A DNA stretch of 64,000 nt from an uncultured Ignavibacteria bacterium (GCA_964440935.1 CAYTTY010000001.1:80933-144932); one strand, 5' to 3'; shown: positions 22,172 to 64,000, numbered from the stretch's first letter. Numbers and translations: made by a program. The notes: generated from the sequence alone by a model not told the origin.

Positions 22172-23431
22172 ATGCGACGACGGCTCTGGAAATTCATTCA
22201 CGGACGCGCCGGCGCCACCGGCCTGCCTCTGGCCTTTAAGGGGCTGATGATTGCCGGTGTCGTGGTATTTGCCGCGTTTTTGGTCTACACCACCCAGACC
22301 ATGGTCTCGGAGTTGAAGGCCTCGGAAGCGCGCTTGGCGATGACCTATGCCAATCAATGGAAGCGTGCCGCCGAAGCAACCAATCCGGCCGAAATTGGAT
22401 TCCTGTTCGATGAGATTATCAGTCGGGAGGATTTCCCGATTGTTGTGGCCAACGCCGAGGGCTTTCCGCTGTACTGGCGTGGCCTCGAAGACATTCCCGA
22501 TAACGCCGAAGATCCCAAGGTCCGGGATGAAGTACGCCGACTCATGCAGCGAATGGGGGAGGAGTATCCACCTGTCCCCATTACTTATCAAGACCAGCTT
22601 CTCTACTATCTCTATTATGGAAATTACAGACTGGTCCAGGCCGTCAATCTATTTCCCTACATCGAAGTCGGTTTGTTAACACTGTTTCTGCTGATTGCCT
22701 ATGTGAGCTTCCGCAACATCAAGCGAGCCGAGCAGCGTTACATCTGGGTCGGTATGGCCAAGGAGACAGCCCATCAGTTGGGCACGCCGCTGTCTTCCTT
22801 GATGGGATGGTTGGAGTTATTGCAGGCCAGAACAGAGAACGATCAACCGCAACAGCCTTCTTCCGATGCCCACGAAATGGCAGAGACTGTTGATCGCATG
22901 CAGCGTGACGTTGCCCGTTTACGGCGTGTCGCCAATCGATTCGGTCAGATCGGCTCGGTCCCGGATTTGAAAGTGCAATCTGTGCAGCCCATTGTCGAAG
23001 AAGTGATTACTTACTTCCGCCAGCGTTTGCCATTCGGTGGTCAAGGTTGTTGTCTCACCGATGACATCGAGCCGACGCCTGAAGTCGCGATTAACCCGGA
23101 ATTGATTTCCTGGGTGTTGGAAAACCTGATCAAGAATGCTCTGGAATCTGTGGATCCTAAACAGGGCGTGGTGCACATCCAATTGCACCCTGCTGCCGGT
23201 GGTGGTGTTGAAATCGCCGTGATTGACAATGGACGCGGCATTACCGGAAAGCAACAGAAGAAGATCTTCGCACCCGGCGTCACAACCAAGAAGCGGGGCT
23301 GGGGCCTGGGCTTGACATTGGCCCGGCGAATTGTCATGGAATACCATGGGGGGGATCTGTATCTTGCGGAATCGATCCCTGATCAATCGACGCGCTTCGT
23401 GATTCACTTACCGGCAGCAGAGAATCCGTAG
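22172..23431 (+). CDS. sensor histidine kinase (PorY-like partner of the downstream PorX-like regulator)
   Basis: Two transmembrane helices flank a ~120-aa periplasmic loop. The HisKA H-box is ETAHQLGTPLSSL, followed by HATPase_c N/G boxes (NLIKNALES..., GWGLGL). Confidence 0.75.
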   Translation: MRRRLWKFIHGRAGATGLPLAFKGLMIAGVVVFAAFLVYTTQTMVSELKASEARLAMTYANQWKRAAEATNPAEIGFLFDEIISREDFPIVVANAEGFPLYWRGLEDIPDNAEDPKVRDEVRRLMQRMGEEYPPVPITYQDQLLYYLYYGNYRLVQAVNLFPYIEVGLLTLFLLIAYVSFRNIKRAEQRYIWVGMAKETAHQLGTPLSSLMGWLELLQARTENDQPQQPSSDAHEMAETVDRMQRDVARLRRVANRFGQIGSVPDLKVQSVQPIVEEVITYFRQRLPFGGQGCCLTDDIEPTPEVAINPELISWVLENLIKNALESVDPKQGVVHIQLHPAAGGGVEIAVIDNGRGITGKQQKKIFAPGVTTKKRGWGLGLTLARRIVMEYHGGDLYLAESIPDQSTRFVIHLPAAENP

Positions 23432-23448
23432 CAGCAAACGAAACGAGG

Positions 23449-25029
23449 ATGTCCGTTATGGCAAGCAATCTGCGCCAGGTATTGTGGGTGGACGACGAGA
23501 TCGATTTGCTCACGGCCCATTTTATGTTTCTCAAAGAGCGTGGGTACGAGGTCACCGGCGCGCATTCGGGTGATGATGCGCTCGGACATCTCGACAAGCA
23601 GCGTTTCGATCTGGTACTGCTCGACGAACAAATGCCGGGGATGGACGGTTTGTCCACGCTGGAGCAAATCAAGCGCCGCGACCCCAATTTGCCGGTGGTG
23701 ATGGTCACCAAGAGCGAAGAAGAGCAGATCATGGACGAGGCGATCGGAAAGAAAATCGACGATTACCTCACCAAACCGGTCAATCCGAGTCAGATACTCT
23801 CGGTGATCAAGCGCCATGTCGAGAAGCGAAAGATTCGGTCCGAGCATCTCGCCAAGCAGTATGTCGCCGATTTCAATCATTTGCGCGAAAACCTGTCGCC
23901 CAATGCCGACTGGACCGCATGGGTCGATGCTCACCGCTCACTGTCGCAATGGGACCTGGATCTGGACCTGTTCGTCAATTTGGGTTTGGACCAGACCCAC
24001 CGCGAACACAAGCGCGAATGGAATGTCGAATTTGGCCGTTGGGTGGAGCGGGAATACCCGCAGTGGATAGCCAATATCGACAACGACAAACGCCCGCCGC
24101 TTTCCGTCGATGTTGTGCCGAAGTACCTGGTGCCGCATCTCAAAGCAGGCCGCAAAGTCTACTTTTTTGTGATCGACTGCATGCGCTTCGACCAGTGGTT
24201 CAACATCGAGTCGGAATTGGCGGAATACTTCACCATCGATCGCGAGTTCTATTTTTCCTTGCTGCCTACGGCGACGCCGTTCTCACGCAATGCCATTTTC
24301 TCCGGGCTGACCGCCGATGAAATCCAACGATTGTATCCGGAACTTTGGCAAATCGGCGACAAAGACGAGTTTTCGCGTAACCGTCTCGAACGCCAACTGC
24401 TCGATCAGCAACTTGATCGTCTCGGCGTACGTCTGCCGTCGGAAGCGAAGTATGTGAAGGTTCTCGACTTTGCTGAAGGCGAAAGCATTGACAAAAAGTT
24501 CAGTTCGTACAAAGACACACCGCTGCTATCGGTGGTCTACAACTTCATCGATCACCTGACACACGGCCGCACGGACCACGAATTGTTATATGAATTGGCG
24601 CCGGATGAGGCGGCCTTTCGCGGCCTGATGAAGACATGGTTCGTGAATTCGTCGTGGTTCAAGGTCCTCCGCAAAATCGCCAAAGATCCGAATGCGATCG
24701 CCGTTGTCACCACCGATCACGGCAGCATCCTGGGATCACGCGGAACCATGGCGCATGGACGGCGCGACACGTCGCCCAGCCTGCGCTACAAATTCGGTGA
24801 CACCTTAAAGTGTGATCCCAAAGATGGCGTCATGGTGAAAGATCCACGCACCTATCGATTGCCGACGTTCACCATGAACACCACATACTTGTTGGCCAAA
24901 GAGGATTTCTATTTCGTCTATCCGACGAATTTCAACGAGTACCAGCGCAAGTTCGCCAATACCTTTCTCCACGGCGGCATTTCCATGCCCGAGATGATTT
25001 TGCCGGTGGCGACGCTGACGCCGAAGTAA
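23449..25029 (+). CDS. PorX-like response regulator: CheY-type receiver fused to a PglZ (alkaline-phosphatase superfamily) domain
   Basis: Receiver motifs are LWVDDE, DLVLLDEQMPGMDG and KP. The C-terminal ~380 aa contains TTDHGS and other phosphatase-superfamily metal-ligand motifs. An alternative start lies at ATG 23458. Confidence 0.75.
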   Translation: MSVMASNLRQVLWVDDEIDLLTAHFMFLKERGYEVTGAHSGDDALGHLDKQRFDLVLLDEQMPGMDGLSTLEQIKRRDPNLPVVMVTKSEEEQIMDEAIGKKIDDYLTKPVNPSQILSVIKRHVEKRKIRSEHLAKQYVADFNHLRENLSPNADWTAWVDAHRSLSQWDLDLDLFVNLGLDQTHREHKREWNVEFGRWVEREYPQWIANIDNDKRPPLSVDVVPKYLVPHLKAGRKVYFFVIDCMRFDQWFNIESELAEYFTIDREFYFSLLPTATPFSRNAIFSGLTADEIQRLYPELWQIGDKDEFSRNRLERQLLDQQLDRLGVRLPSEAKYVKVLDFAEGESIDKKFSSYKDTPLLSVVYNFIDHLTHGRTDHELLYELAPDEAAFRGLMKTWFVNSSWFKVLRKIAKDPNAIAVVTTDHGSILGSRGTMAHGRRDTSPSLRYKFGDTLKCDPKDGVMVKDPRTYRLPTFTMNTTYLLAKEDFYFVYPTNFNEYQRKFANTFLHGGISMPEMILPVATLTPK

Positions 25030-25031
25030 CC

Positions 25032-25460
25032 GTGGCCGGACAGACGACAAAGTGTGAGGCGGAAACCGTTGCCGTCGCCCATTCCTTCGCCCGATCCTTG
25101 AAGCCGGGCGACTGGGTGGGACTCATCGGTCCCCTTGGGGCCGGGAAATCGGTCTTCGCCCGGGCGGTCGGTGAGGCGCTCGGGGTCCGCGAACCAATGC
25201 CATCGCCGACATATACTCTCATGAATGTGCTCGATGGCGATATCCCGGTCTATCATGTGGATTTGTACCGTCTATCGTCGGCCGATGAGCTGGAATTTGC
25301 CGGTATTGCTCCGTATTTCCAATCGTCCGGTATCTGTCTCGTCGAATGGGCGGATCGCATTCGCGACCAGTGGCCCGCCACCGGTTGGCTTGTCACGATT
25401 AGCATCGCCGGCGATACCGAACGCCGTATCTCTATTGTTCCCCTCACCTCGGCATCGTAA
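25032..25460 (+). CDS. tsaE: tRNA t6A37 biosynthesis ATPase TsaE (YjeE)
   Basis: P-loop LIGPLGAGKS and the PSPTYTL motif; 142 aa. Confidence 0.85.
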   Translation: MAGQTTKCEAETVAVAHSFARSLKPGDWVGLIGPLGAGKSVFARAVGEALGVREPMPSPTYTLMNVLDGDIPVYHVDLYRLSSADELEFAGIAPYFQSSGICLVEWADRIRDQWPATGWLVTISIAGDTERRISIVPLTSAS

Positions 25461-50043: not shown

Positions 50044-51975
50044 ATGACACGGCGTGGGGAATACAGGCTATCGGTATTCTGTGTGGTACTCGCACTCATG
50101 TTGGCTACGACTGTGGGTGCCCAGTCAGACCCACAGAGGCATGGTCCGATCTCGCCGCCCGCCATCGAAGTGGTGTATCCTAAGAAGGGGCAGCGGATCG
50201 GGCCGGTCGATTCCACGTTTGTGATCGGTTCAGTTACGCCGGGGGCATCTTTACGCATCAATGGCCATCTTATCGATGTCTACCGTACCGGTGGGTTTTT
50301 GGCCTGGCTGCCCGTCGAGAAGGGCAAGTTCACCTTCCGCCTGCGTGCGACCGATGGATTCCATTTCGATTCGCTCGACCTGCCGGTCACCATCGCCGAC
50401 CCGCGACCAATTCCGCCCGATAGCGGGCTGATCATCCGCAACGTGCGCCCGATGTGGAACCGGACGATTCGCGCCGGCGATGAAATCGAGATTCGGTTTG
50501 ATGGGACCGTCGGATGTGACGCCCGGTATTGGATTATCGGAGATGTCGATTCACTTGGGCCGTTTCCCATGGCTGAGCAGCATTATGAGCGCTATTCCGA
50601 TTTCCACACATATCGCAAGGACGCATTGCTCGAAGACGGTCCCCGGTACGATCAGGCGCCGTCCGGAGGCCGCTATACCGGTGTCTGGAGAGTCCCCGAT
50701 ATCGAGGGCGCCGATTCGCTGACGGTTCGAGTTGAGCTGACCGGGCTCTCTCAGAAATGGCTGGAGTCGCGACGGCGTCACTACAAGACACACTACGGGC
50801 CACCGATACCGATCGACACGACAGTCCGCACGATTCGTGAGACCGCAACCGGCAGATTGCGTCCAGTTGATGATCTCCCGCCGCGGGTGGTTGAATTCAC
50901 TGACAGTGTGCAGACGCTGCGCATGGGTCCAAGACTGGGGTACATCACGATCTTTCAGCCTTACGGTGTGCGCACCCGTTGGTGGGGAGAGGCGGGACCG
51001 TGGACCATCTTACAGTTGGCGCCGGGACACATCGCCTGGCTTGAAAAAGATAAGACGAGGCTCCTGCCGGAGGGCACGCCGGTTCCGGAAACATTTATTG
51101 CGCGGATGTCCACCAAAGTCAGCGGTGACGATGTGCAATTCCGCGTGGGAACGTCGGAGCGGATTCCATTCAAGATAACCGTCGATGACGATCTGCATCA
51201 TGTGCGCGTGATCCTGTTCGGCGCCACGTCGAACACCGACTGGATCGAGCACGATCCCGATGATGACCTGATCAAGAACATCACCTGGTCGCAAATGCAA
51301 CCCGGTGTGTATGTGATCAACTTACGCCTGGCGCAACAGGTGTGGGGTTACGATGCCCATTACGATAACAAACAGTTTGTGCTGGAATTCAAACGGCCAC
51401 CGTATGTCAGCGATGATCTCGAAGGACTCAAGGTCGCGGTCGATGCCGGGCATTCACGCGATCCCGGCGCCATTGGGCCGACCGGCCTGATGGAAAAGGA
51501 CGCGAATCTCAAGATCGCCTGGAAAGTACACGCCGAACTGAAAGAGCGCGGTGCTGATGTCGTCATGACGCGTCTCGGCGATGAACATGTCGCGCTCTAT
51601 GACCGCCCGTCGCTGTCGGTCGCCGAGGATGTCGACCTGTTCGTGTCGGTGCACAACAATGCCGTTCCCGACGGTATCAATCCGTACTACCGCAACGGCA
51701 CGTCAACGTACTACTACCACACGTTCTCACGCGATTTCGCGCGGCACATGCACCATCGTGTCCTCGATGCCACTGAACTCAACGATTACGGTCTCACCCA
51801 CGGCAACTTCGCCGTGATCCGTCCCACGCATTATCCCTCCGTCCTCGTTGAATGTGCGTTCATCATTCTCCCCGAACAGGAGGAGATGCTGTTGGACGAC
51901 GATTTCATTGAGCGCACGGCCAAGGGGATTGTGAAAGGTATTGAGGATTTCGTGGAGGCGCGGTTGAAGCGGTAA
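50044..51975 (+). CDS. multidomain N-acetylmuramoyl-L-alanine amidase (C-terminal Amidase_3/AmiC-type domain, ~450 aa N-terminal region of unknown function)
   Basis: Start chosen at ATG 50044 (MTRRGEYRLSVFCVVLALMLATTVGA signal peptide); the track ORF begins 49894. The C-terminal VAVDAGHSRDPGA...EHVAL...SVHNNA...ECAFI motifs are the Zn-binding residues of Amidase_3. Confidence 0.8.
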   Translation: MTRRGEYRLSVFCVVLALMLATTVGAQSDPQRHGPISPPAIEVVYPKKGQRIGPVDSTFVIGSVTPGASLRINGHLIDVYRTGGFLAWLPVEKGKFTFRLRATDGFHFDSLDLPVTIADPRPIPPDSGLIIRNVRPMWNRTIRAGDEIEIRFDGTVGCDARYWIIGDVDSLGPFPMAEQHYERYSDFHTYRKDALLEDGPRYDQAPSGGRYTGVWRVPDIEGADSLTVRVELTGLSQKWLESRRRHYKTHYGPPIPIDTTVRTIRETATGRLRPVDDLPPRVVEFTDSVQTLRMGPRLGYITIFQPYGVRTRWWGEAGPWTILQLAPGHIAWLEKDKTRLLPEGTPVPETFIARMSTKVSGDDVQFRVGTSERIPFKITVDDDLHHVRVILFGATSNTDWIEHDPDDDLIKNITWSQMQPGVYVINLRLAQQVWGYDAHYDNKQFVLEFKRPPYVSDDLEGLKVAVDAGHSRDPGAIGPTGLMEKDANLKIAWKVHAELKERGADVVMTRLGDEHVALYDRPSLSVAEDVDLFVSVHNNAVPDGINPYYRNGTSTYYYHTFSRDFARHMHHRVLDATELNDYGLTHGNFAVIRPTHYPSVLVECAFIILPEQEEMLLDDDFIERTAKGIVKGIEDFVEARLKR

Positions 51976-52155
51976 TGTTTACTGAAGTCGATGTGGTATG
52001 TTGACACTGACTCGACAACCCATTTAATTCACACTGGCCAAGGTCATTGCACATACGTCAGGGCACCCGGCCGGGAGTACACAGCGGTGCTCCCCGGCGC
52101 TGGGGCGTGTTGACAACGTCTTATAGCAATTGTCATAAATCCTTTCCGTTTGGAT

Positions 52156-52347
52156 CAGGGTGCCAGGGGCCTTGAGGGGTGTGTTGCAAAACCCCCGAGA
52201 ATCACAGCCTTCGGGAGGGCGAGCCTCCCGGCGAGCCGCAACGGCATGTTCCACACGGCGGCTCGGCGGGAGCCTCGCCCTCCCCAGTCTGAGGTGATGA
52301 TAGTCAGCAGGCTTCTCAACACGCCCCTTGAGGCCCGTGGCACCCTG
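52156..52347. repeat. long nested inverted repeat (31-bp outer stem enclosing a 27-bp inner stem)
   Basis: Outer arms CAGGGTGCCAGGGGCCTTGAGGGGTGTGTTG (52156-52186) and CAACACGCCCCTTGAGGCCCGTGGCACCCTG (52318-52347) pair at 30/31 allowing G-U. Inner arms 52213-52239 and 52258-52285 (GGGAGGGCGAGCCTCCCGGCGAGCCGC / GCGGCTCGGCGGGAGCCTCGCCCTCCCC) pair at 25/27. Each inner arm is itself palindromic (GGGAGG-GCGA-CCTCCC). Confidence 0.7.
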
Positions 52348-52452
52348 ATGTCATCACGATGCACACGGTGCCTCGCTTCCCCTCAATCGGAAATCTATTC
52401 TGACAACCGCTCTAGGATGTGATCATATCGGGCGTTGTGAAGACGATCATCT

Positions 52453-52523
52453 GTAGGGGCGTACTGAGTACGCCCTCTCCCCGTATCGGATACGCGCCGA
52501 GGGCGTATTCAATACGCCCCTAC
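52453..52523. repeat. twin perfect palindromes GGGCGTAYT-N-ARTACGCCC (candidate operator pair or cruciform)
   Basis: GGGCGTACTGAGTACGCCC at 52457-52475 and GGGCGTATTCAATACGCCC at 52501-52519, separated by a third palindrome CGTATCGGATACG (52482-52494). The outer 25-nt arms are also mutually complementary. Confidence 0.65.
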
Positions 52524-52663
52524 GAGAGTACACGATCTTCAATGACACACGTTTTGCAACACGTCCCTCTGCCGTGGGATGCGCCGGTATTCACACATGG
52601 GTTATATTATTCACGTCATATTTAAAGCAATTGTCAGAATAACGTTCTGATTAAATTGAGAAG

Positions 52664-52892
52664 TGTTGTCATTCTCGCGAAAGCGGGAATCCATTTTCCG
52701 CGCGTGGCTGGGCTCAAAATGGCTCCCAGCTTTCGCGGGGATGACAGCGAGGGTCCCTGACGGCCCAATGGATTGCCGTTTGATTTCTATACTCTGTCAT
52801 CCCCGTCGGCCGTGGCGGACCGAGACAGTGTCGTAATTGCTTGTGTACGAAGACAATGGATTCCCGCTTTCGCGGGAATGACAGCGAAGGTT
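52664..52892. mobile_element. MITE-like unit bounded by inverted copies of a dRS3-type palindromic repeat (ATTCCCGC-TTTC-GCGGGAAT + GACAGCGA)
   Basis: Copy 1 is on the minus strand at 52668-52693 (GTCATTCTCGCGAAAGCGGGAATCCA). Copy 2 is degenerate, on the plus strand at 52721-52752. Copy 3 is perfect, on the plus strand at 52857-52890 (TGGATTCCCGCTTTCGCGGGAATGACAGCGAAGG). Copies 1 and 3 form ~27-nt terminal inverted repeats around ~165 bp. Confidence 0.5.
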
Positions 52893-53269
52893 ACTTGGCA
52901 ATCGGAAATCTATTCTGACAACCGCTCTATTATAGTTATAGGACGACTGAGCCGTAGGTCAGGGGCACAGCGCCCGCAACGTCCGTTGCGTTCACGACTG
53001 CGTGAGCGTGCCGGGCTCCTGACAATCGGAGAACAGGGGAAGACCAGAGCGATTGTCAACACCGTCTTTCGATTGACCGAGCGATGTAGCACGGGCGCCT
53101 CGCCCGTGCGGCATGGCCCGCTCGACCATGCTCACGGCAAGCGGGACGGCCATGCTACGGTCTCGTGAATCGGAAAGTTCTTCTGACAATCGCTATAATC
53201 CCTGGCGTGTCAGGCGCGTGATTGGGATACCAGCGGCTTTACGACAATCGTTTCAATGGTGCACAAACT

Positions 53270-54094
53270 CTAGCCTTTCACCGCCCCCGCGGTAATCCCC
53301 GCAATAATCTGTCTTTGGAAGAAGAGGAACACGATCAGCACTGGAACCGTGGCCATAGTAGACGCAGCGAACAAGTGCGGAAGATCGACCCCCTGATAGC
53401 CCCGAAACATGGCCAAGGCAACGGGCAGTGTGCGCGCCTTTTCATTGGTGAGAATGAACGGGAAGAGAAACGAGTTCCACGTCAACCAGAACACCTGAAC
53501 CGCCAGCACCGCCAGTGTCGGTTTGCAGATAGGCATGACAATGCGGTACACGATCCGCCACGGTCCTGCACCGTCGACACGCGCCGCCTCCTCGACTTCA
53601 ATCGGCACCGATGACACCGCGCTACGCACCAAGAGTACACCGAGCGGCATCACGATGACGGGCAGGATGATCGCTGCAAGGGTGTCGTAAAGGCCGAGTT
53701 GATGGATCAGAATGAACATCGGTACAATCAACACATACTGCGGTACCATCAAAACGATCGCCGACGACGCAAACAAAACTCGTCGTCCGGGAAATCGACG
53801 CCGCGCTAAAGCATATCCCACCGGAAAACACAGCAACAGATTGCCAATCGTTACAATGATCGCAACGACGGCAGAATTGAACAGGTAAAAGCCAAATGGC
53901 ATCGACCCAAACAGATCGACGTAGTTGCCCCACCGTGGCGCATTATCCAACGGGTTGAACCAGCGCGCATCCCAGTGTGGCGATACCGAACCAACCACCA
54001 TCCAGATAAACGGGAGCAGCATCCCGGCTAGGACAATCAGCAGAACAACGGAGAGAGTCTTCTCGCCAGTGGTACGGGGACGATCGTGCCTCAT
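53270..54094 (-). CDS. carbohydrate ABC transporter permease (MalG/UgpE-type)
   Basis: Six transmembrane helices and an EAA loop (EAARVDGAGPWRIVYRIVMP); 274 aa. Confidence 0.85.
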   Translation of the reverse strand: MRHDRPRTTGEKTLSVVLLIVLAGMLLPFIWMVVGSVSPHWDARWFNPLDNAPRWGNYVDLFGSMPFGFYLFNSAVVAIIVTIGNLLLCFPVGYALARRRFPGRRVLFASSAIVLMVPQYVLIVPMFILIHQLGLYDTLAAIILPVIVMPLGVLLVRSAVSSVPIEVEEAARVDGAGPWRIVYRIVMPICKPTLAVLAVQVFWLTWNSFLFPFILTNEKARTLPVALAMFRGYQGVDLPHLFAASTMATVPVLIVFLFFQRQIIAGITAGAVKG

Positions 54095-54987
54095 TCTTCC
54101 GCACCCCGTCCAAATGACAACAACCGAAACTGAACGAGCGAAATCAGGGCGATGACAATAAACAACAAATAGGCCGCGGCCGATGCGTATCCCATGTCAA
54201 AACGCTCGAATCCCGACGTGTAAACATGATATACGACAGTCGTCGTCGACCCGACCGGCCCGCCCTGTGTCATTACGAAGATCTCGGTGAAGATCTGGAA
54301 ACTCTTGATCAGGTTGATCACGACCGCGTAGAGCAACATCGGCCGCAGGTACGGCCACGTGATCGCCCAGAACCGCTGCCAGGCATTGGCGCCGTGGGTC
54401 AACGCATCATCGATCAAATCCTGTGGAATGGTCTGCAACCCCGCCAGAAACAAAAGCGCGTAGTAGCCGATCGACACCCACACGTCCATGACCATCACCG
54501 CCAGCAGCGCGGTTGATTCCGAGAGCAGAAACCCCTGCTCCGGGACCGGAATGCCGATCATTTGCGCCAGGCGATACAGATATCCATTTTGGCCGTACAA
54601 CTGGAGAAATACCAGTGCGACGACCACTGTCGCCGTTAGTGTCGGTGCGAAAAAGCCGGCACGGAACAACGCCCGTCCCCAGATACGGCGGTTCAGCGCT
54701 AATGCAACGACGATGGCAATCGCGGTTGTAACCGGAACCGTTCCCGCCGCAAAGAATACGGTGTGCCCGAGTGCACTCCAGAATTCACTGTTGTTGAGCA
54801 CGGCTGCGAAGTTTGCCAGTCCGACCCACGTCCACTCACCGGAGAACACATCGCGCCGTGCAAAGGCGAGGGCCAAAGCATAGAGAAGAGGATACAGCCA
54901 GAAGACGCCGAGCACAATCGTCCATGGCAATGACAACACGACGCCCGACCAGTCGCGCCGGGTGTCGTGGGAGTCAGGTATGGACAT
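54091..54987 (-). CDS. carbohydrate ABC transporter permease (MalF/UgpA-type)
   Basis: EAA-like loop IDDALTHGANAWQRFWAITWPYLRP; six transmembrane helices. The stop overlaps the downstream permease start (ATGA). Confidence 0.85.
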   Translation of the reverse strand: MSIPDSHDTRRDWSGVVLSLPWTIVLGVFWLYPLLYALALAFARRDVFSGEWTWVGLANFAAVLNNSEFWSALGHTVFFAAGTVPVTTAIAIVVALALNRRIWGRALFRAGFFAPTLTATVVVALVFLQLYGQNGYLYRLAQMIGIPVPEQGFLLSESTALLAVMVMDVWVSIGYYALLFLAGLQTIPQDLIDDALTHGANAWQRFWAITWPYLRPMLLYAVVINLIKSFQIFTEIFVMTQGGPVGSTTTVVYHVYTSGFERFDMGYASAAAYLLFIVIALISLVQFRLLSFGRGAEE

Positions 54988-55010
54988 ATCCGTCGTTAGC
55001 GAAGAAGTTG

Positions 55011-56300
55011 CTACTTCTCCAAGATGTCATTAATGCGGTCGCAGGTTTCGGCCATGGCTGAGGGAGGATCCAACTTTTCGTACAAGGCCTGCTCAATACC
55101 CCATTCGAGTTCCTTTTCAATGTCAACCCAGTCGGGGTGCACCGGTGGTGATTGCGCGCTCAGCATCTGCCGCATAAACACGCGACGCACCGGATGCTCA
55201 TAGAAGTAGGGATTGTTTCCGGTCTCGATATGGACCGGAGTGGCACACCCGGTGGCGATACACAGGTTGAAAACGTGTTTCGGTTTGAGCAGATGACGCG
55301 CCAGCTTGATCGCGCCCAGCGGTTCTCGTGCGGCCCGTGGAATCGCCAGATACTCGCCACCGGCAAAGGAGACCGAGCCACCGTGGTCGACACTCGGCTG
55401 CGGGAGCATATGCACCGAGTAGCGAAAGTCGGCAATGTCGGCTTCATCGATCCGCCGATACAGCCAATCCCCGCTCAGATGGAAGAGCAGCTCGCCAGAC
55501 ATGAACATATTGTCCAGGACCGCTTGTTTTTCAACGATACCGAATTGCTTCAGATCGACAAAGAACTCCAGTGCTTCAATGGCCTCGGGCATCACCAGAG
55601 CGCACTGATCGCCGAGGAGGCTGTCGGGTTCGAGGATGTCCGCCTCATTCGACCACAGATAGGGGAGAAAGGCCTTGTAGAGCCGATGCCGTTCGGCCGC
55701 GTTGATGCCGTAGCCGTAAAACTGCGGTTTATGACGGTTGGCAAAACGCGACCACAGTTTCAATTCACCCCATGTGACTGGTGGACGGTTTGGCCGGAGG
55801 CCCACGACCTCCGCGATCACATCATTCTGGTATAGAACACGTGTGGAGAGATACCACGGTAACGCCCAACAGCTCCCTCGGTAGATGCTTGGTGGCCAGC
55901 CGATGTATTCGGGTTGCAGGCGGGCGTACTCTGACGACAGATCGGTCAGTGCACCCGGTGCTGCGAACTCGGCGATCCAATCCGATCCCACCTCGAGCAA
56001 GTCGGGTGCCTCATTGCCGGCAAACGCGGCCACGATCTTCTGATGTCCGTCGTTCCACGTCAGGTCGGTGATCTCGACTTCGTATTCGGGATTTTCGCTC
56101 TCGAATTCCTCGACCGCCTTGATGATGACGTCTTTGACCTTCGGATCGGTCCAGAACTGCCAGAAGCGAACGATCGTCCGTCCGTCTGAGGTTCGCTGAT
56201 TGTCGCCACTGCCACACCCGCCAAAGACAAGCACGACCGCTGCCAAGCAGAGGACAGTCAGACGACAGACGATTGCTGTGTGTGATTTGGTCATATCCAT
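55011..56300 (-). CDS. ABC transporter extracellular solute-binding protein (family 1, sugar-type) lipoprotein
   Basis: Signal peptide with lipobox (LVFGGCGS). ~430 aa, typical of MalE/UgpB-like solute-binding proteins. First gene of the SBP-permease-permease operon. Confidence 0.8.
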   Translation of the reverse strand: MDMTKSHTAIVCRLTVLCLAAVVLVFGGCGSGDNQRTSDGRTIVRFWQFWTDPKVKDVIIKAVEEFESENPEYEVEITDLTWNDGHQKIVAAFAGNEAPDLLEVGSDWIAEFAAPGALTDLSSEYARLQPEYIGWPPSIYRGSCWALPWYLSTRVLYQNDVIAEVVGLRPNRPPVTWGELKLWSRFANRHKPQFYGYGINAAERHRLYKAFLPYLWSNEADILEPDSLLGDQCALVMPEAIEALEFFVDLKQFGIVEKQAVLDNMFMSGELLFHLSGDWLYRRIDEADIADFRYSVHMLPQPSVDHGGSVSFAGGEYLAIPRAAREPLGAIKLARHLLKPKHVFNLCIATGCATPVHIETGNNPYFYEHPVRRVFMRQMLSAQSPPVHPDWVDIEKELEWGIEQALYEKLDPPSAMAETCDRINDILEK

Positions 56301-56309
56301 AACGCTAAA

Positions 56310-56345
56310 CAGCCCGCCTTTGGGCGGGCTGTCAAGTAACTAACG
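56310..56345 (-). terminator. hairpin between the LTXXQ gene and the ABC operon (possible terminator/attenuator)
   Basis: CAGCCCGCC-TTTG-GGCGGGCTG perfect 9-bp stem, followed on the minus strand by TTTAGCGTT. Confidence 0.4.
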
Positions 56346-56481
56346 ATGTGCAGATCAAAGTAGAGGGCGGTTTGGAGAATCATAGGTGATGGTGAGTGTA
56401 TGCATTCCTTTCGTTTTCATATCCGCGTCAGGACCATCCGCTACTACTTGCGTCCCAAACACACGGTCCGCAAACCCCAGG

Positions 56482-57567
56482 TTAGTGGGGTCCGCGGCGT
56501 CCGTGTGGACCAGACGGAAGGAGGTCCGTCATTGCCTCGAAAACAGCCTGTTGCTCGTCGTTTAGAATGGCTACGATTGCGTCGTGCGTGTCCTCACGAA
56601 TCTGCTCGACCTGTTCACGCCTGGCCTCACGATCGGGACGTTGATCGCCGATGCCGTCGTGCAGGTCCTGCATGTGGTCATGTGTCGTCGCCAGAATGGT
56701 CTCAAGCTGTGAGACCTGTGCATTGCTGAGATCCAGAGCTGCAGTCAAGAGTTCCACGCGGGCGTCGTGGCGCTCGATCATACCGTCCTGCATGTGTTCC
56801 CGACGTTCCTCGCGCCGCTCCTGACGATTGGCTTCGAGCTGCTGGAGTTGGTTGGGTGTGAGGATGGCTTCAACGCTTTCGCGCATCTGCTCGCGAAGAG
56901 CGACCGCTTCCTCGGACCGTCCGAAGCCGCGTTCACCGCCATATTGCTCGCGCAGTGCCTGCATGGCCTCGCGGTGCTCTTCGCGCAGTTCGGCTAACTG
57001 TGTTCGCTGCGCTTCAGTCGGATCCAGCTCGGCAAACATCTCTTGGCCGGACCCACGATGTCCTCGGAACCCGCGTCCGCCACGACGCCCATCGGTGCGG
57101 TCGGTCCACTGTTCCCGCGCCTGCATCCGCATGGTTTCATGCTGATCTTTGATGACTTCAAGCAACGCGACCATCTGATCGGCGTCGAGGATTTCGGCGC
57201 TCTCTTTGAGCAACGTATGGAGCGGACGGTCACCGGCGGGGCGTCCGCGAAAACCACGTTCGCCATCTTCACGCGCCTGTTGACGCTTCGCCCGGCGGCT
57301 GTCGACCGCGCGGTTGTAACGATCCAGCGCCGATTGCATCAGATTTTCCTGATCACTTTTCAGGCTGACTTTGGCCTGGACGGCGCTCAGCGTAATCGGT
57401 TCGATGAACGTGCCGTCATCGGTCGAGGCCGTCAGGTTCGACCCTTGTGTGCTGGTATCGCCCGACTGGCATCCGACCAGTCCGAATGCGAAGAGGGCGA
57501 CGCCGAGGATCAGGATACTGCCGATCATTTGCGTGCGGCGTTTCGGTGTCATTGTTGGTGTCTTCAT
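56482..57567 (-). CDS. periplasmic LTXXQ-motif protein (Spy/CpxP/ZraP family-like), lipoprotein
   Basis: Start at ATG 57567 (rc) with an AGGAGG Shine-Dalgarno; the track begins 57681. Lipobox LVGC. Repeated LxxxQ-type helices (LDADQMVALL, LDPTEAQRTQLAEL, LTPNQLQQL). Highly charged, low-complexity and helical. Confidence 0.65.
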   Translation of the reverse strand: MKTPTMTPKRRTQMIGSILILGVALFAFGLVGCQSGDTSTQGSNLTASTDDGTFIEPITLSAVQAKVSLKSDQENLMQSALDRYNRAVDSRRAKRQQAREDGERGFRGRPAGDRPLHTLLKESAEILDADQMVALLEVIKDQHETMRMQAREQWTDRTDGRRGGRGFRGHRGSGQEMFAELDPTEAQRTQLAELREEHREAMQALREQYGGERGFGRSEEAVALREQMRESVEAILTPNQLQQLEANRQERREERREHMQDGMIERHDARVELLTAALDLSNAQVSQLETILATTHDHMQDLHDGIGDQRPDREARREQVEQIREDTHDAIVAILNDEQQAVFEAMTDLLPSGPHGRRGPH

Positions 57568-57632
57568 CGTGTAGTCCTCCTGAAGCTGATTGCTATAGCT
57601 CGTTATCGTGTATTCCCTGCCTGAATTCTCGA

Positions 57633-58454
57633 CTAGTTCAGTTCGGACATCGGCTCGACGGCGAGTTCGACTTTCGTCCATTGGTTTAGCGGCTCGGGCC
57701 GTTCGGGACGATTGCGGCCGCGTCGGCCAAAGCCACCGGCGCCACCGAATCGACCGTCTCGTCCACGCATGCCTTCGCGTGTCTTCACCAGTGGCTCACG
57801 ATCAAATTCGGGTTTAGGCGTCTCGAAGCCGATTCCGATGTCGCCGCCCGGATTCGTTCCAATTGCGTAGAGATGTTCTTCACTGTAGAAGAGTGGCACC
57901 TTCAACTCGTAGACTAGCCGCCTGTTTTCAATCATCAGTTGCGCGCTGATGTCCGCCCGGGCGCCGGTCTGGATGCGCTGAATGACCTCGCCTTGTTCAT
58001 CCAGCAACTCCATTCCCGGCGCCAGCGAGTCGGACAACACAGTGAGATCGTTACGATCCGGACGTTTTCCCGTGAATCGTCGAAGTGATCCGCTACCCAC
58101 AAGTCCCACCGGATAGCGGACACCAAATTCCTTATCATCGCCGCCGTCGGGATCGAACCATATGATCAGGCCAAGCCCCATGATCTGACGAATGGCCGTC
58201 TCATCAGTGGTGGCCAAATGAACATAGATGAATTCGTCATCATTCCGAACCGCGATCCCGACTTTGGTGTCATCGAGGTGGATTTTCGCCTGAGCCCACT
58301 CCGATTCCGCGCCGTCAATAACGACGGAGTCGGAATTCCACTGACTGGTGATTTCCGGTTCGCCGCTGTGTGCCGTCGTCACGTAGAGGCCGCAGACAAG
58401 AATCGCGACCAGGCCGCTGGTGATTCGCTTGGTTGTGTCAGTCCGTGCCAACAT
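57633..58454 (-). CDS. hypothetical secreted protein
   Basis: Signal peptide (VAILVCGLYVTTAHS). Gly/Arg-rich C-terminal tail. Between the HK and the LTXXQ protein on the same strand. Confidence 0.45.
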   Translation of the reverse strand: MLARTDTTKRITSGLVAILVCGLYVTTAHSGEPEITSQWNSDSVVIDGAESEWAQAKIHLDDTKVGIAVRNDDEFIYVHLATTDETAIRQIMGLGLIIWFDPDGGDDKEFGVRYPVGLVGSGSLRRFTGKRPDRNDLTVLSDSLAPGMELLDEQGEVIQRIQTGARADISAQLMIENRRLVYELKVPLFYSEEHLYAIGTNPGGDIGIGFETPKPEFDREPLVKTREGMRGRDGRFGGAGGFGRRGRNRPERPEPLNQWTKVELAVEPMSELN

Positions 58455-58595
58455 TTCCTGCCCTCCATGAGCGCTCGGTCTCCGTCGCTCTCACAAGGGA
58501 ATACCTTTGAGATGTGGTAGAAATGTTGCAGAGGGATGGAATTGTGCGATTGGGCTCAGAATTCGATGTGGATGACCCTGCGTCGCCCGGACCTC

Positions 58596-58632
58596 CCGCC
58601 CGCGCGGCATGGCCGAGACGGCCATGCTACGA
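58596..58632. repeat. REP-like palindromic element (second copy of the one at 53100-53160)
   Basis: GCGGCATGGCC-GAGAC-GGCCATGCTACG with a perfect 8-bp stem. 53108-53157 carries the same termini (GCGGCATGGCC...GACGGCCATGCTACG) with an internal insertion. Confidence 0.5.
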
Positions 58633-58642
58633 GAGTGGGCTC

Positions 58643-60106
58643 TTACCGTGGCAACTCATTGCCCTTAGGCAGTTCGACAGAAATCACCGCCCCCGACGGT
58701 TCCTGATTCGCGGCCCAAACAGATCCACCATGCTGCTGCGCGATCTCTTTGACGATGGCCAGTCCCAGTCCTGTCCCTGAATCGGAACGCGCTGGATCGG
58801 CACGGTAAAACCGGTCGAAAATGTGGGGAAGGTCATCATCACGAAAACCCGAACCGTCGTCGGCTACGGTCAGCCTGTATCGGTCCGGTGAAGGCACATC
58901 AATGCTGACCGTGACCGATCCACCAGATGGCACATATCGCAGCGAATTGATCAGCAGATTTTCGAACATCTGTTCGAGCCGACGACCGTCGGCGATGATC
59001 CAGGCTTCCTGATCCGGTGTCGGACCATCGATCTGCAATCCGGCTTTCTCAAAGCGTGGACGGTAGCGGCCGATCGTGTTGCGACATAACGCCGCCCAAT
59101 CAAGCGATTCGGGAGAGAGGGCCGCCGACCCCGACTCCAACCGAGCCAACTCGAGCAGATCATTCACGAGCAAGCCCATCCGTTGCGATTCATCGAGGAT
59201 ATTCGACAGATACTGACGTCGTTCATCATCCGAAATCGGTATGTCGGGCCGCTGTAAGGTCTCCGCATATCCACGAATCGATGTCAGCGGTGTCGAAAGT
59301 TCGTGCGAGATATCGGCCAGCAGTTGGCGACGTTGCTTATCCATCCGTTCGACGCGCTCCCGGGATTGCGCCAGGCTCTCTGTCATACGATTGAGCTGCT
59401 CACCGACACGGTCGATTTCGTCTCGTCCGGAGTGTTCCACCCGGACACTCAAGTCACCCTCAGCCACCTGCAAGGCCAGATGTTCGAGCGCGCGAATCCG
59501 TCGGAGCAGATAACGGAAGATGATGAATCCACCGGCGCCGGCGAGGACGATCGCCACCGGCAGGATAAACAGGATGTGCCACGGCGAGTGCTGGCGGCGT
59601 AAAGAGATGCCGCGTCGGGGTGACATGGCCACCACTTCACCAATGACGCCTTCAGTGGTCTCAACAGGCATGACCGCTGTCATCAGCCGCTTGTCGGATT
59701 GGATTTCCCAGAGACGGCGTCCCCAGCGCCGCCCGCGCGTTGAGTCCTGGCCCTCGTCGGGTGGTGCGAGACCGGGCGGCGGGTTCATCCGGTTAAACGG
59801 ACCGGGACGACTCGCGACAATCTCGCCATCAGTGCCGCGAAAGGTCAGACGGGCACCCGATTCGATTGACGAATACTCGCGTAAGATCTCGCGGATCTGG
59901 CCCTGCGTAGGATTGCCCGGAAGCGAAGCCAGTTCGCGAGCGGCATCGCGCGCCAAGTCCTCCAGCGTGCTTTGCTGCAAACGATCGGCGATCGGCCGTA
60001 GAATGGTGACAGCGAAGACACCCTGGACAATGGTGGCGACGACCAGAACCAGCAGGAAGACGCCGGCGAAGGTCCACAGCAAGCTGCGGGGACGCAATCG
60101 CTTCAT
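58643..60106 (-). CDS. sensor histidine kinase (TM-periplasmic-TM-HAMP-HisKA-HATPase)
   Basis: H-box ADISHELSTPLTSIRG; N box LINSLRY; G boxes DDGSGF and GTGLGLAIV; 487 aa. Confidence 0.85.
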   Translation of the reverse strand: MKRLRPRSLLWTFAGVFLLVLVVATIVQGVFAVTILRPIADRLQQSTLEDLARDAARELASLPGNPTQGQIREILREYSSIESGARLTFRGTDGEIVASRPGPFNRMNPPPGLAPPDEGQDSTRGRRWGRRLWEIQSDKRLMTAVMPVETTEGVIGEVVAMSPRRGISLRRQHSPWHILFILPVAIVLAGAGGFIIFRYLLRRIRALEHLALQVAEGDLSVRVEHSGRDEIDRVGEQLNRMTESLAQSRERVERMDKQRRQLLADISHELSTPLTSIRGYAETLQRPDIPISDDERRQYLSNILDESQRMGLLVNDLLELARLESGSAALSPESLDWAALCRNTIGRYRPRFEKAGLQIDGPTPDQEAWIIADGRRLEQMFENLLINSLRYVPSGGSVTVSIDVPSPDRYRLTVADDGSGFRDDDLPHIFDRFYRADPARSDSGTGLGLAIVKEIAQQHGGSVWAANQEPSGAVISVELPKGNELPR

Positions 60107-60789
60107 TCACTTGCCTCCGTGAATCGATAACCGGCGCCCCAGACCGTTTGAATGTAGCGCGGATGGGACGCATCGGTCTCGAGATGTTTTCGCAGGCGGC
60201 TGATCAGACTATCGATGGAACGTGGATCGACCACCCGATCTTCACCCCAGACCTGTTCCATCAGGGCCTCCCGCGAGTACACGCGCCCGGCATGCGACGC
60301 CATGAAGTAGAGCAAGTCGAATTCGAGTGATGTCAGTTCGACCGGCTGTCCATTGCGCATCACGACGCGGCGCGACGGATCGATGGTCAACGGACCGCGG
60401 GTCAGCGGCTCCTTACGTGAGACCGATGTTGTTCGCCTCAGCAGCGCGCGGACACGTGCCACCAGCTCGAGGGTACTGAATGGCTTGGTGAGATAGTCGT
60501 CCGCGCCGATTTCAAATCCAAGTACCTTGTCGCCTTCGCTGGAGCGGGCCGTGAGCATCAGGATGGGGAGATCGCTGTCGCGACGAATCTGTCGGGTGAG
60601 TTCGATCCCGTCCATATGCGGCATCATGACATCCAGCACCAGCAACCGGGGACGCTGCCGTTGCACCTCATGCAAGGCGGTCAATCCATCGTGAACCTGT
60701 CGGCACGAGAACCCGGCTGCTTCGAGGTTCTTAGCCACCAGTTCGGCAATCTTGCGGTCATCTTCGGCAATGAGAATGTCCAGGCTCAT
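60103..60789 (-). CDS. OmpR-family response regulator (receiver + winged-helix DNA-binding domain)
   Basis: ILIAEDD, LLVLDVMMPHMDG and KP receiver motifs. C-terminal winged helix (...YIQTVWGAGYRF). Overlaps the HK by 4 nt. Confidence 0.9.
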   Translation of the reverse strand: MSLDILIAEDDRKIAELVAKNLEAAGFSCRQVHDGLTALHEVQRQRPRLLVLDVMMPHMDGIELTRQIRRDSDLPILMLTARSSEGDKVLGFEIGADDYLTKPFSTLELVARVRALLRRTTSVSRKEPLTRGPLTIDPSRRVVMRNGQPVELTSLEFDLLYFMASHAGRVYSREALMEQVWGEDRVVDPRSIDSLISRLRKHLETDASHPRYIQTVWGAGYRFTEASE

Positions 60790-60884
60790 AACATACGCTC
60801 GCTGGAAATCGGCATCCTGTCAAGCAGATCGAATCGACTCGCGTGATTCACACGTCCCCTGACTCCTCAACGAGGGGTGCCCCA

Positions 60885-60921
60885 CCCTAACCGGAAGCCA
60901 TTACATGGCTTCCGGTTAGGG
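60885..60921. other. perfect 15-bp stem hairpin in the regulator upstream region
   Basis: CCCTAACCGGAAGCC-ATTACAT-GGCTTCCGGTTAGGG. No U-tract on either strand. Preceded by a second small hairpin (CCCCTG...GAGGGG). Confidence 0.5.
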
Positions 60922-61196
60922 TGAGATACGGCCCCGATGGTCCGACCGTGTTTCGGCGGATGCGCGGTCGGATAACATGGAATGGTTACCAAGATCTAAC
61001 CTCTGTTGTAACCTGTTGTGTTAACTTGGCAAAAGCGCATCCGCCCTACGTATAGGGCCCGCTGAGCCTGGATACTGTAACTCGATTCCCCTTCCACAAC
61101 CCAAATCACCCGTTGCGTTTTCCGCCAAATCAACGTACAATGGTCGGTCTTTTTGACCGACGATTCTGACAGAGACAAACCAAGGTGAGATGACCG

Positions 61197-61397
61197 ATGG
61201 CCAAACGTTGCAGCATAACAGGAAAACATCCGGTGGCGGGGAATAATGTCTCCCACGCCAACAATAAGACGAAACGTCGTTTCAATCCCAATCTCGTGTC
61301 CAAGCGCATTTGGAACCCGACGCAGAAGCGCTGGGTGCGTATGCGCATTTCGACCAAGGCTCTGAAGACGCTTGATAAGAAGGGTTGGGTGCGATAA
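61197..61397 (+). CDS. rpmB: 50S ribosomal protein L28
   Basis: MAKRCSITGKHPVAGNNVSHANNKTKRRFNPNL...; 66 aa; canonical L28 sequence. Confidence 0.9.
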   Translation: MAKRCSITGKHPVAGNNVSHANNKTKRRFNPNLVSKRIWNPTQKRWVRMRISTKALKTLDKKGWVR

Positions 61398-61423
61398 CCC
61401 GACCGGCTGGCTTCGATGGAAAT

Positions 61424-61455
61424 GAAAAAGCCCCGCCATTGGCGGGGCTTTTTCT
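61424..61455. terminator. bidirectional Rho-independent terminator (rpmB / cytochrome convergent pair)
   Basis: AAAAAGCCCCGCC-ATT-GGCGGGGCTTTTT: an A-tract, a 9-bp GC stem and a T-tract. Confidence 0.85.
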
Positions 61456-61476
61456 GTTCTACCTGAATGTGTCAGA

Positions 61477-62544
61477 CTACCGGTCGCTCTTCATGGTTTG
61501 AATGTTGGCCAATCCCGCGATGCCCTCCTGGGAATTGACGAAGTCCTGTGTCCGCTCCAGAACCGCCTCGGCGTACGCCGGATTGTGCACACCGTAGCTT
61601 TGATCCTCGAGGAGCATCAAATAGTTCCAGATTGCACCGAGCTCGTCGGCAGAGCGCTGCACCCCCGGTATGATATGATCGTGATCGTCGATCCAGCCAA
61701 GAGCGATCAAATCATCACGCAACGCTTCAAGGTCGTCGGTAAAGGGACCCTGATAGTCGCGTGTGAAGGTTGTTCCGTCCGTTGCCGAGCCGAAATTGTG
61801 GCAGGTGCATCCGGGGATATTCACGCGTTCGGAACCGCGATAGTTGTAAACAATTTTGTAGGTGTGTCCGCCCGCCAGAGCATTCTCCGGAACGCCGGCC
61901 ATGTGGCAGGTGACGCATCCGTTGCTGATCGCATTATTGTGCGCCGCGTCGGATGGATACGCACCCTGGCCGAACTCGTACGCCCCTTGCCCACTGAGAA
62001 TATTGGTCTGTGGACCGTGGTGCGGTCCCCAGTACGGGCTTTGGACAATCTCGCCATCGTTGAAACCGGGGGAGGGATTGCGAACCTGGTGGCACACCGC
62101 GCACTCGTTACTGGTGCCCTTATCGTACGTGCCACCCTGATTCACCAGCACTGCGCCTTCTTGCCGTAAACTGAAGTTTTCGCGGGTGTGTGGCGCGTGA
62201 CAGGTGAAGCAACCGATACGCGACGAGAATTCCACCGGGATGGCCTCGCCGGTGTTCACGTAGTGTTGATGTCCCTCGTTCGTGTGACAGCGTGAACACT
62301 CGGGGGTAATGTCATCGCCACGACGAAGATAGGTGTCGCCGGTGTTGTGTTTCGAGTCTTCAAACTCCGTTTGGAAAGGTGCGAGTAACACCGCCAATTC
62401 ATCATCATACTGATCGGTATGGCAGTTCATGCATGATGCGGTCCCGGCCGGCCCCTGGGGACCCTGATCGCCTTCGCATCCTGTCAATCCGACTGCCAAG
62501 ATGGCCATTGCCAGCATCATCCATCCCAGTGCAATCTTTTTCAT
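61477..62544 (-). CDS. multihaem c-type cytochrome lipoprotein (five canonical CxxCH sites)
   Basis: Lipobox LTGCEG. Haem-binding motifs CMNCH, CSRCH, CFTCH, CAVCH and CVTCH, plus a non-canonical CTCH. 355 aa. Confidence 0.8.
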   Translation of the reverse strand: MKKIALGWMMLAMAILAVGLTGCEGDQGPQGPAGTASCMNCHTDQYDDELAVLLAPFQTEFEDSKHNTGDTYLRRGDDITPECSRCHTNEGHQHYVNTGEAIPVEFSSRIGCFTCHAPHTRENFSLRQEGAVLVNQGGTYDKGTSNECAVCHQVRNPSPGFNDGEIVQSPYWGPHHGPQTNILSGQGAYEFGQGAYPSDAAHNNAISNGCVTCHMAGVPENALAGGHTYKIVYNYRGSERVNIPGCTCHNFGSATDGTTFTRDYQGPFTDDLEALRDDLIALGWIDDHDHIIPGVQRSADELGAIWNYLMLLEDQSYGVHNPAYAEAVLERTQDFVNSQEGIAGLANIQTMKSDR

Positions 62545-62767
62545 CTGTTCCCTCCTATCAACACTCCTTGTCCATTGCTTCCATGATTGCGCATATGTTC
62601 ACAAACTTACTCCACTTTCATCATCATCGGCACGCTTGTCAAGGAAATACACCTTTAATCAGGTCTGGTTTTGCCCGCTTTTGACAACCCTAAGTTGAAA
62701 GGCGCGTTCAAAATAGGCGCATCTTGAACGTGCCGAATAAGTTGTCACTGTAATGTCAGTGAAGCGG

Positions 62768-64000
<1,233 letters not shown>

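Follow-up and report, generated by a model that had tools for sequence, protein, structure and literature searches.

Six alternating copies of a 31-base motif, possible ends of small foldback elements, in the spacer between converging amidase and transporter genes

The spacer at positions 51976-53269 of a 64-kb stretch of DNA from an uncultured bacterium (the whole stretch, 64,000 nucleotides, is called the window) is 1,294 bp long, holds no credible gene and carries six copies of a motif of ~31 bases. We put at about 0.5 the probability that this motif serves as the terminal inverted repeat in small foldback elements, a non-coding and lineage-specific family resembling transposable elements of the miniature inverted-repeat type (MITEs) or bacterial interspersed mosaic elements (BIMEs). 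The original prediction for this DNA had offered promoters or protein-binding boxes of small transcription units, or the conserved ends of a small mobile element. Mobile-element ends are the best supported of these options. The observations behind this reading are the arrangement of the copies in inverted pairs, their sharp edges, the TA at their outer termini, their AT-richness, the hairpins formed by the units and the apparently recent gain of the array, which is missing in relatives. The whole locus is best read as a mosaic resembling BIMEs, where several palindromic families would be nested in the 'safe' spacer between two converging genes. Such repeats are an ordinary form of bacterial "junk", and the copies are most likely of this form and not promoters.

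Results

The motif has the consensus AATCGGAAA-N5-TTCTGACAAYYGCTMTA, and its six copies (M1-M6, Table 1) lie between 52120 and 53199. Alignment of the copies gave the conserved blocks, in order, as AATCGGAAA, five variable bases, TTCTGACAA, YY, GCT, N and TA. When 12 nt of flank were included on each side, the similarity among copies ended sharply at both edges. Five of the six copies have TA at the outer end, and the GC content of the copies is 28-47%, against 57% for the window. A small dyad, TCrGAA-N5-TTCTGA, is present inside the motif and is perfect in M3. The copies follow one another in the orientation order - + - + - + without exception. A CRISPR array, which consists of direct repeats in one orientation with spacers of 25-50 nt, was rejected on the alternating orientation and the spacing of 91-247 nt between neighbouring copies.

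Five copies had been reported originally, and all five were found, at most a few bases from the positions given, but the true count is six. The additional copy, M5, had been listed only as a TGACAA core on the reverse strand at 53051 and is in fact a degenerate copy of the motif. Isolated TGACAA cores, also reported before, were confirmed at 52110 and 53019-53028. With the originally proposed IUPAC consensus and up to three mismatches, four matches were found against 0.00 expected from 100 dinucleotide-preserving shuffles. A position weight matrix was then built from the five good copies and used to scan both strands of the window (128 kb). The five good copies scored 46-53 bits and M5 scored 9.1 bits, while every remaining position scored -2.9 bits or less.

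Two plus-strand copies, M2 and M4, are identical, as had been noted along with their offset of ~515 bp. The identity extends over 31 nt, not 29 nt (52384-52414 equals 52899-52929, offset 515 bp). The sequences flanking M2 and M4 are unrelated despite the 31/31 identity, which points to a discrete unit and not to a segmental duplication. Tandem duplication of a ~500-bp segment, a candidate prompted by spacings of 501 and 515 bp, was likewise rejected, as the intervening sequences are unrelated.

The six copies are arranged as three inverted pairs, the GCTnTA end being outward in each, and these pairs delimit the units U1 (297 bp), U2 (311 bp) and U3 (157 bp). Over 30-31 nt, the members of each pair (M1/M2, M3/M4 and M5/M6) are 70-77% complementary, and the complementarity of copies from different pairs reaches 84%. 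M1 and M3, which are the left ends of U1 and U2, share the subtype ..ATTGCTnTAA, whereas the right ends of the same units, M2 and M4, carry ..ACCGCTCTA; M5 and M6 have ..ATCGCT in common. Such end subtypes, kept from unit to unit, would be expected if the units were copies of one element whose left end differed slightly from its right end.

Each unit makes one long hairpin, which is closed at the base by its motif pair. Compared with shuffled sequences, the folding z was -11.3 for U1, -9.3 for U2 and -5.0 for U3, while coding controls gave -0.45 +/- 0.95. Every interval between neighbouring copies (I1-I5) is dominated by a palindrome. The earlier statement that each copy abuts a large hairpin holds; the folds in I1, I2 and I3 are strong and those in I4 and I5 weaker (z values in Table 1).

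Table 1 Features of the spacer between the amidase and permease genes
Feature	Position	Strand	Description
L0, left flank	51976-52119		Probable ancestral spacer; 52084-52116 orthologous to sister-strain sequence past the amidase stop
U1	52120-52416		Unit bounded by M1 and M2
M1	52120-52151	-	AAACGGAAAGGATTTATGACAATTGCTATAAG; left end of U1
I1	52152-52384		Long hairpin 52154-52349, arms are R2 repeats GGGGnGTGTTGCAAAAC; z = -9.3
I1 inner palindrome	52213-52284		Perfect-type, GGGAGGGCGAGCCTCCCGGCGAGCCGC / its reverse complement
M2	52385-52416	+	Right end of U1; 31-mer identical with M4
I2	52417-52620		Palindrome 52415-52566; R2 copy 52551-52569 (-); z = -6.6
I2 REPIN-like doublet	52453 (+), inverted partner ending 52523		GTAG-headed palindromes, GTAGGGGCGTAcTGAgTACGCCC at 52453
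U2	52621-52931		Unit bounded by M3 and M4
M3	52621-52652	-	Left end of U2; subtype of M1 (..ATTGCTnTAA)
I3	52653-52899		Three TGTCATTCCCGCGAAAGCGGGAATCCATT copies making one long hairpin; z = -7.1
TGTCATTCCCGCGAAAGCGGGAATCCATT copies in I3	52667-52698; 52716-52746; 52852-52883	+; -; -	
M4	52900-52931	+	Right end of U2; 31-mer identical with M2
I4	52932-53042		Weak hairpin, z = -1.8; solitary CTGACAATCG core 53019-53028
U3	53043-53199		Unit bounded by M5 and M6
M5	53043-53076	-	Degenerate, TCAATCGAAAGACGGTGTTGACAATCGCTCTGG, 1-2 nt insertion; left end of U3
I5	53077-53167		GTAG-headed doublet: GTAGCACGGGCG.. at 53086 (+), GTAGCATGGCC.. from 53160 (-); z = -1.8
M6	53168-53199	+	AATCGGAAAGTTCTTCTGACAATCGCTATAAT; right end of U3
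R0, right flank	53200-53269		Probable ancestral spacer, orthologous to sister-strain sequence past the permease stop
R2 copies	52102-52116; 52174-52192; 52311-52329 (-); 52551-52569 (-)		

The junction between the amidase and permease genes is kept in four relatives, in all of which it is motif-free. In GCA_054680595.1, whose amidase is 80% identical at the amino-acid level, the gap between the two genes is 237 bp. It is 86 bp in the JGI contig L031 (amidase 61% identical) and 0 bp in contigs L029 and L030 (56%), where the genes overlap. A weight-matrix scan of ~90 kb of the relatives' loci detected no motif copy. A sister strain is represented by three short contigs only, L033 (GCA_014729565.1) and L034 and L035 (SRR28370465), with ~87% nucleotide identity at the 3′ end of the amidase gene. 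In the assembled flanks of this strain, the motif is absent from the 208 nt next to the amidase and from the 176 nt next to the permease. Both edges of the spacer nevertheless align with it: 52084-52116 is 76% identical to positions 20-51 of the L033 tail, and 53210-53284 is 66% identical to the L035 tail over 76 nt (E = 8.5e-5). Given the orthologous flanks in the sister strain and the motif-free junctions of the relatives, the ~1.1 kb between ~52119 and 53209 appears to be a recent, lineage-specific gain. The complete identity of M2 and M4 fits a recent duplication. I4 may be a remnant of the ancestral spacer, as suggested by a marginal local similarity (z = 3.1) to the 237-bp spacer of the relative L027.

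The sister locus has features of its own. The region 3′ of its permease gene (L035 2496-2671) contains a duplication of the last ~15 nt of the permease and the CCATTGAAACGGT element that follows, which indicates that the spacer grows by local duplication too. Non-functional local duplication by an unspecified mechanism takes up what probability the readings weighed here leave over. Directly past the amidase stop, L034 2089-2128 (CAATCCGAAGAAGAACGGTGCCCCACCGCTCTG) resembles M5 (53045-53070) at both ends, at chance level (E ~2); the motif may have descended from this sequence, or the likeness may be coincidental. That the I2 module is inverted with respect to the sister strain was considered and dropped after both sister flanks had been aligned, as the sister locus is itself palindromic.

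The interiors of the units belong to short repeat families other than the 31-nt motif. A GTAG-headed doublet family, GTAGGGGCGTAnTnAnTACGCCC, is found at 52453/52523, and a second one is found at 53086/53160. These interior palindromes fit the form of repetitive extragenic palindromic (REP) units, that is, a GTAG-headed, GC-rich imperfect palindrome of 20-40 nt. A copy related to the second family lies at 58582-58628, in the spacer upstream of a histidine-kinase operon (..GCGGCATGGCCGAGACGGCCATGCTAC). No 31-nt motif adjoins it, which suggests that the REP-like GTAG family was dispersed independently of the motif. The R2 repeat GGGGnGTGTTGCAAAAC (GGGGnGTGTTGMAAAACCC) has four copies in the array. 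The sister strain has R2 as well, on both sides of its spacer and in inverted orientation (L033 4525-4543 and L035 2654-2671), and on L033 also a GTAG doublet homologous to that in I2. From this comparison R2 appears to be older at the locus than the 31-nt motif.

The palindrome GGGAGGGCGAGCCTCCCGGCGAGCCGC in I1 is another of these families, and so is the palindrome TGTCATTCCCGCGAAAGCGGGAATCC, which has three copies, all in I3. The latter is 84-94% identical to intergenic repeats of Neisseria gonorrhoeae, Legionella and sphingomonad replicons, a near-identical hairpin in distant phyla. In a distant search of a plasmid collection, only the ATTCCCGCGAAAGCGGGAAT-type palindrome was matched (Neisseria, Legionella and sphingomonads), never the motif.

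No credible open reading frame (ORF) lies within U1, U2 or U3. To see whether copies elsewhere had been annotated as genes, seven spurious ORFs of the array were concatenated and searched against 5.8 billion proteins; they had no match at E <= 1. ARAGORN found no transfer RNA or transfer-messenger RNA in the region. Rfam 15 gave no match at gathering thresholds, and permissive thresholds returned generic microRNA-hairpin hits only.

As its leading idea, the original prediction took the copies for promoters that drive small non-coding transcription units; the hairpins would then be the RNAs. Promoters of host genes, such as that upstream of rpmB, look like TTGACA-N17-TAnAAT, and the CTGACA/TTGACA core of the motif resembles the -35 hexamer upstream of host genes. 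The hexamers TATAAT, at the end of M6, and TATAAG, at the end of M1, both stand 17 nt past CGGAAA. However, a scan of 51900-53400 found no sigma-70-type site, and manual alignment showed no conserved -10 element at 16-18 nt past TGACAA in any copy. Nor are the conserved blocks spaced like a -35/-10 pair. If the terminal TATAAT-like end is taken as the -10 element, the best-conserved blocks (AATCGGAAA, TTCTGACAA and GCT) fall in the spacer between the hexamers. Neighbouring copies would also fire convergently into shared segments of 111-204 bp. None of the copies is followed by a unit that ends in a terminator, terminator-like sites show no enrichment (2, where 1.2 are expected), and the weak Rfam hits are generic hairpins below threshold. 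The promoter idea is not supported, and we regard it as very unlikely.

It is also unlikely that the copies serve, as boxes inside a cluster of the REP/BIME type, to bind a DNA-bending or nucleoid protein such as an IHF-like one, or a regulator. E. coli BIME-1 (RIP) elements contain an IHF site, for which the loose consensus is WATCARNNNNTTR. M3 (AATCAGAACGTTA) matches this consensus exactly, the AT-rich motif is flanked by GC-rich palindromes, and its conservation in two blocks would suit a bound protein. On the other hand, the consensus is loose, may not be that of the host and is matched by one copy of six, the others being off by at least two positions. The motif is also missing from the other intergenic regions of the window and from the relatives, which would be odd for a general host protein.

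An independent assembly covers both sides of the array. Two Logan contigs (k = 31) of SRR7048227, from the same strain, match the window over 10,944 and 10,832 bases with 0 mismatches (21.8 kb). One of them, L032, ends at 52148, inside M1, and the other, L001, ends at 53169 with M6 as its last 31-mer. The contigs therefore break at the inner edges of the outermost copies. The 30-mers at these two ends occur once within the window, so a de Bruijn branch at M1 and M6 implies that they have a second context in the sample. At most, this suggests more genomic copies or other arrangements of the array. The array would explain why short-k assemblies break at this locus.

Branching at M1 and M6 is also what coexisting arrangements of modules would give if the copies were sites of a site-specific recombinase that inverts, captures or shuffles the hairpin modules, as in a shufflon or in pdif modules. 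The strict alternation of six sites around modules of 91-247 bp, the sharp boundaries, the identity of two sites and the dyad TCrGAA-N5-TTCTGA, perfect in M3, are in keeping with this explanation. Among the ~50 genes of the window, however, the Pfam scan (~45 ORFs) found no tyrosine or serine recombinase, and a dif-like site is absent. The dyad, with arms of 6 bp and an odd 5-bp spacer, differs from dif (11-6-11), lox/FRT and hix sites. The modules carry neither coding sequences nor promoters for which an inversion would matter, and the seeming inversion of I2 against the sister strain is ambiguous because the repeats themselves are palindromic. On balance we find recombination sites an improbable explanation. 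The specific version in which the six copies are crossover sites of a recombinase encoded elsewhere, making up a non-coding multiple-inversion or cassette array, would be highly improbable. If it were true, the array might adjust how the two converging operons are terminated or insulated from each other, and the assembly branching at M1 and M6 would reflect arrangements that coexist in the population. An integron attC array, in which sites with RYYYAAC/GTTRRRY boxes all point one way and cassette ORFs and an intI gene are expected, was rejected on the alternating orientation, the lack of cassette ORFs and the lack of an integrase among the scanned window ORFs; its boxes were compared by eye.

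The spacer is set between an N-acetylmuramoyl-L-alanine amidase gene on the plus strand that ends at 51975 and a sugar ABC (ATP-binding cassette) transporter operon on the minus strand, whose permease gene ends at 53270, and the two genes thus converge on it with their 3′ ends. Homologues of the amidase suggest that the host belongs to Candidatus Zixiibacteriota. All genes in 1-51975 (~43 consecutive) are on the plus strand and nearly all in 53270-64000 are on the minus strand. The bulk GC skew reverses its sign at ~52 kb, and the same flip is seen in the relative L027. Such a switch could mark replication-termination (Ter-like) or chromosome-dimer-resolution sites. But the skew stems from codon position 1 (+0.21 on the left and -0.16 on the right), with third positions opposite in sign, and therefore reflects the coding strand and not replication. 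Copies that alternate in orientation cannot make a fork trap, and the same junction in relatives is 0-237 bp long and free of the motif. A search for dif-like 28-mers stayed at chance level with no hit in a motif copy, and the motif dyad is 6-5-6. A role of the copies as Ter or dif sites is extremely unlikely.

Two observations elsewhere in the window are unrelated to the motif. The ORF at 23383-25029 has a response-regulator receiver domain and a PglZ domain and adjoins a histidine kinase. The 373-bp gap that follows in the crude ORF map (25030-25402) looks coding, and a gene was probably missed there.

Discussion

The inverted pairs with TA at their outer ends, bounding AT-rich copies with sharp edges and folding into unit-length hairpins, argue for the ends of small foldback elements. 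A possible history can be proposed. A transposase encoded elsewhere in the genome would bind the motif and would have moved or duplicated the units. U1, U2 and U3 would have come to lie side by side, interleaved and filled with doublets of the GTAG-headed REP/REPIN-like kind as well as with two or three other families, so that palindromic elements became nested into each other. Any effect that the array has today would be a by-product, for instance if it terminated transcription from both sides or shielded the 3′ ends of the mRNAs of the converging amidase and ABC-transporter operons.

Several results weigh against such foldback elements. The interior is normally shared among the copies of a MITE family, but I1, I3 and I5, compared in every pairing and orientation, have no similarity. 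The unrelated interiors are the main weakness of the proposal, and we infer nested insertions as their cause. The 2-bp TA is inseparable from the repeat itself, which leaves a target-site duplication unproven, and the spacer changes too quickly for an exact empty site to be reconstructed. No additional copy lies in the remaining 62.7 kb of the window. The Pfam scan of ~45 of the ~50 long window ORFs, which was mentioned above for recombinases, found no recombinase, no transposase and no REP-associated Y1 transposase (RAYT) either. Not all breaks of the independent assembly are caused by repeats, as L032 starts at 41205, inside an aminotransferase gene.

Searches beyond the window point in the same direction. 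The strict pattern TCGGAAA-N5-6-TTCTGACAAYYGC was scanned against 185,579 species-representative genomes and JGI metagenome contigs. It gave 11 single hits in the former and 14 in the latter, in unrelated taxa and at about the number expected by chance. Most of these hits stop short of the full motif, and the two that extend further are AT-rich coding DNA. A related pattern had 0 hits in IMG/VR. As only chance-level hits were obtained from these collections, the family is either narrow or too diverged elsewhere to be matched.

Should the foldback reading be correct, the locus would hold an undescribed family of small mobile repeats from Candidatus Zixiibacteriota, which as a phylum is known from metagenomes alone, and the nesting of several palindromic families in a single convergent spacer would have taken little evolutionary time. 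The array could serve as a marker of strain-level variation, and it cautions against annotating its hairpins as genes or small RNAs. It would have no bearing on a major open question unless the copies were recombination sites.

Among known systems, the R64 shufflon (sfx sites) and the pdif modules of Acinetobacter plasmids likewise have short, conserved, alternating sites around segments of 100-300 bp. The present array differs from them in having no recombinase gene nearby, no cargo and a site architecture unlike the known core sites.

The outer end of the motif, TATAGCGATTG.., resembles the sequence that we take to be the Correia end, TATAGTGGATT.., and this resemblance is a lead only. Usual MITEs are shorter than 200 bp and dispersed, whereas U1 and U2 are 297 and 311 bp long and a single cluster is seen in the 64 kb. 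The Correia/NEMIS, RUP and ERIC MITEs (PMC2229807) are also unlike the present units in that the interiors here differ completely and are GC-rich palindromes, with no partner transposase in the window. They are alike in being small, non-coding intergenic units with terminal inverted repeats of ~24-31 bp, 5′-TA-3′ termini, AT-rich ends, a stem-loop that spans the whole unit and an apparent presence/absence polymorphism among close relatives. TA termini, AT-rich ends, inverted repeats and a stem-loop fold are among the features described for bacterial MITEs (Delihas 2008, PMC2229807).

GTAG-headed palindromes are tabulated as REP units, and clusters of REPs in alternating orientation define BIMEs (Nunvar et al., PMC2817692). 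Unlike a REP, the 31-nt motif is AT-rich, has a weak 6-bp dyad and is no GTAG-headed, GC-rich palindrome, and unlike the case of RAYT-linked REPs, no RAYT gene was found among the scanned window ORFs. BIMEs conserve their palindromic units, whereas here the alternating motif is conserved and the palindromes between its copies differ. The likeness to REP/REPIN/BIME clusters associated with RAYT (PMC2817692, PMC3116915) lies in the extragenic mosaic of several short families at the 3′ ends of converging genes, in the alternation of units at fairly regular spacing and in the interior palindromes, several of which are GTAG-headed doublets.

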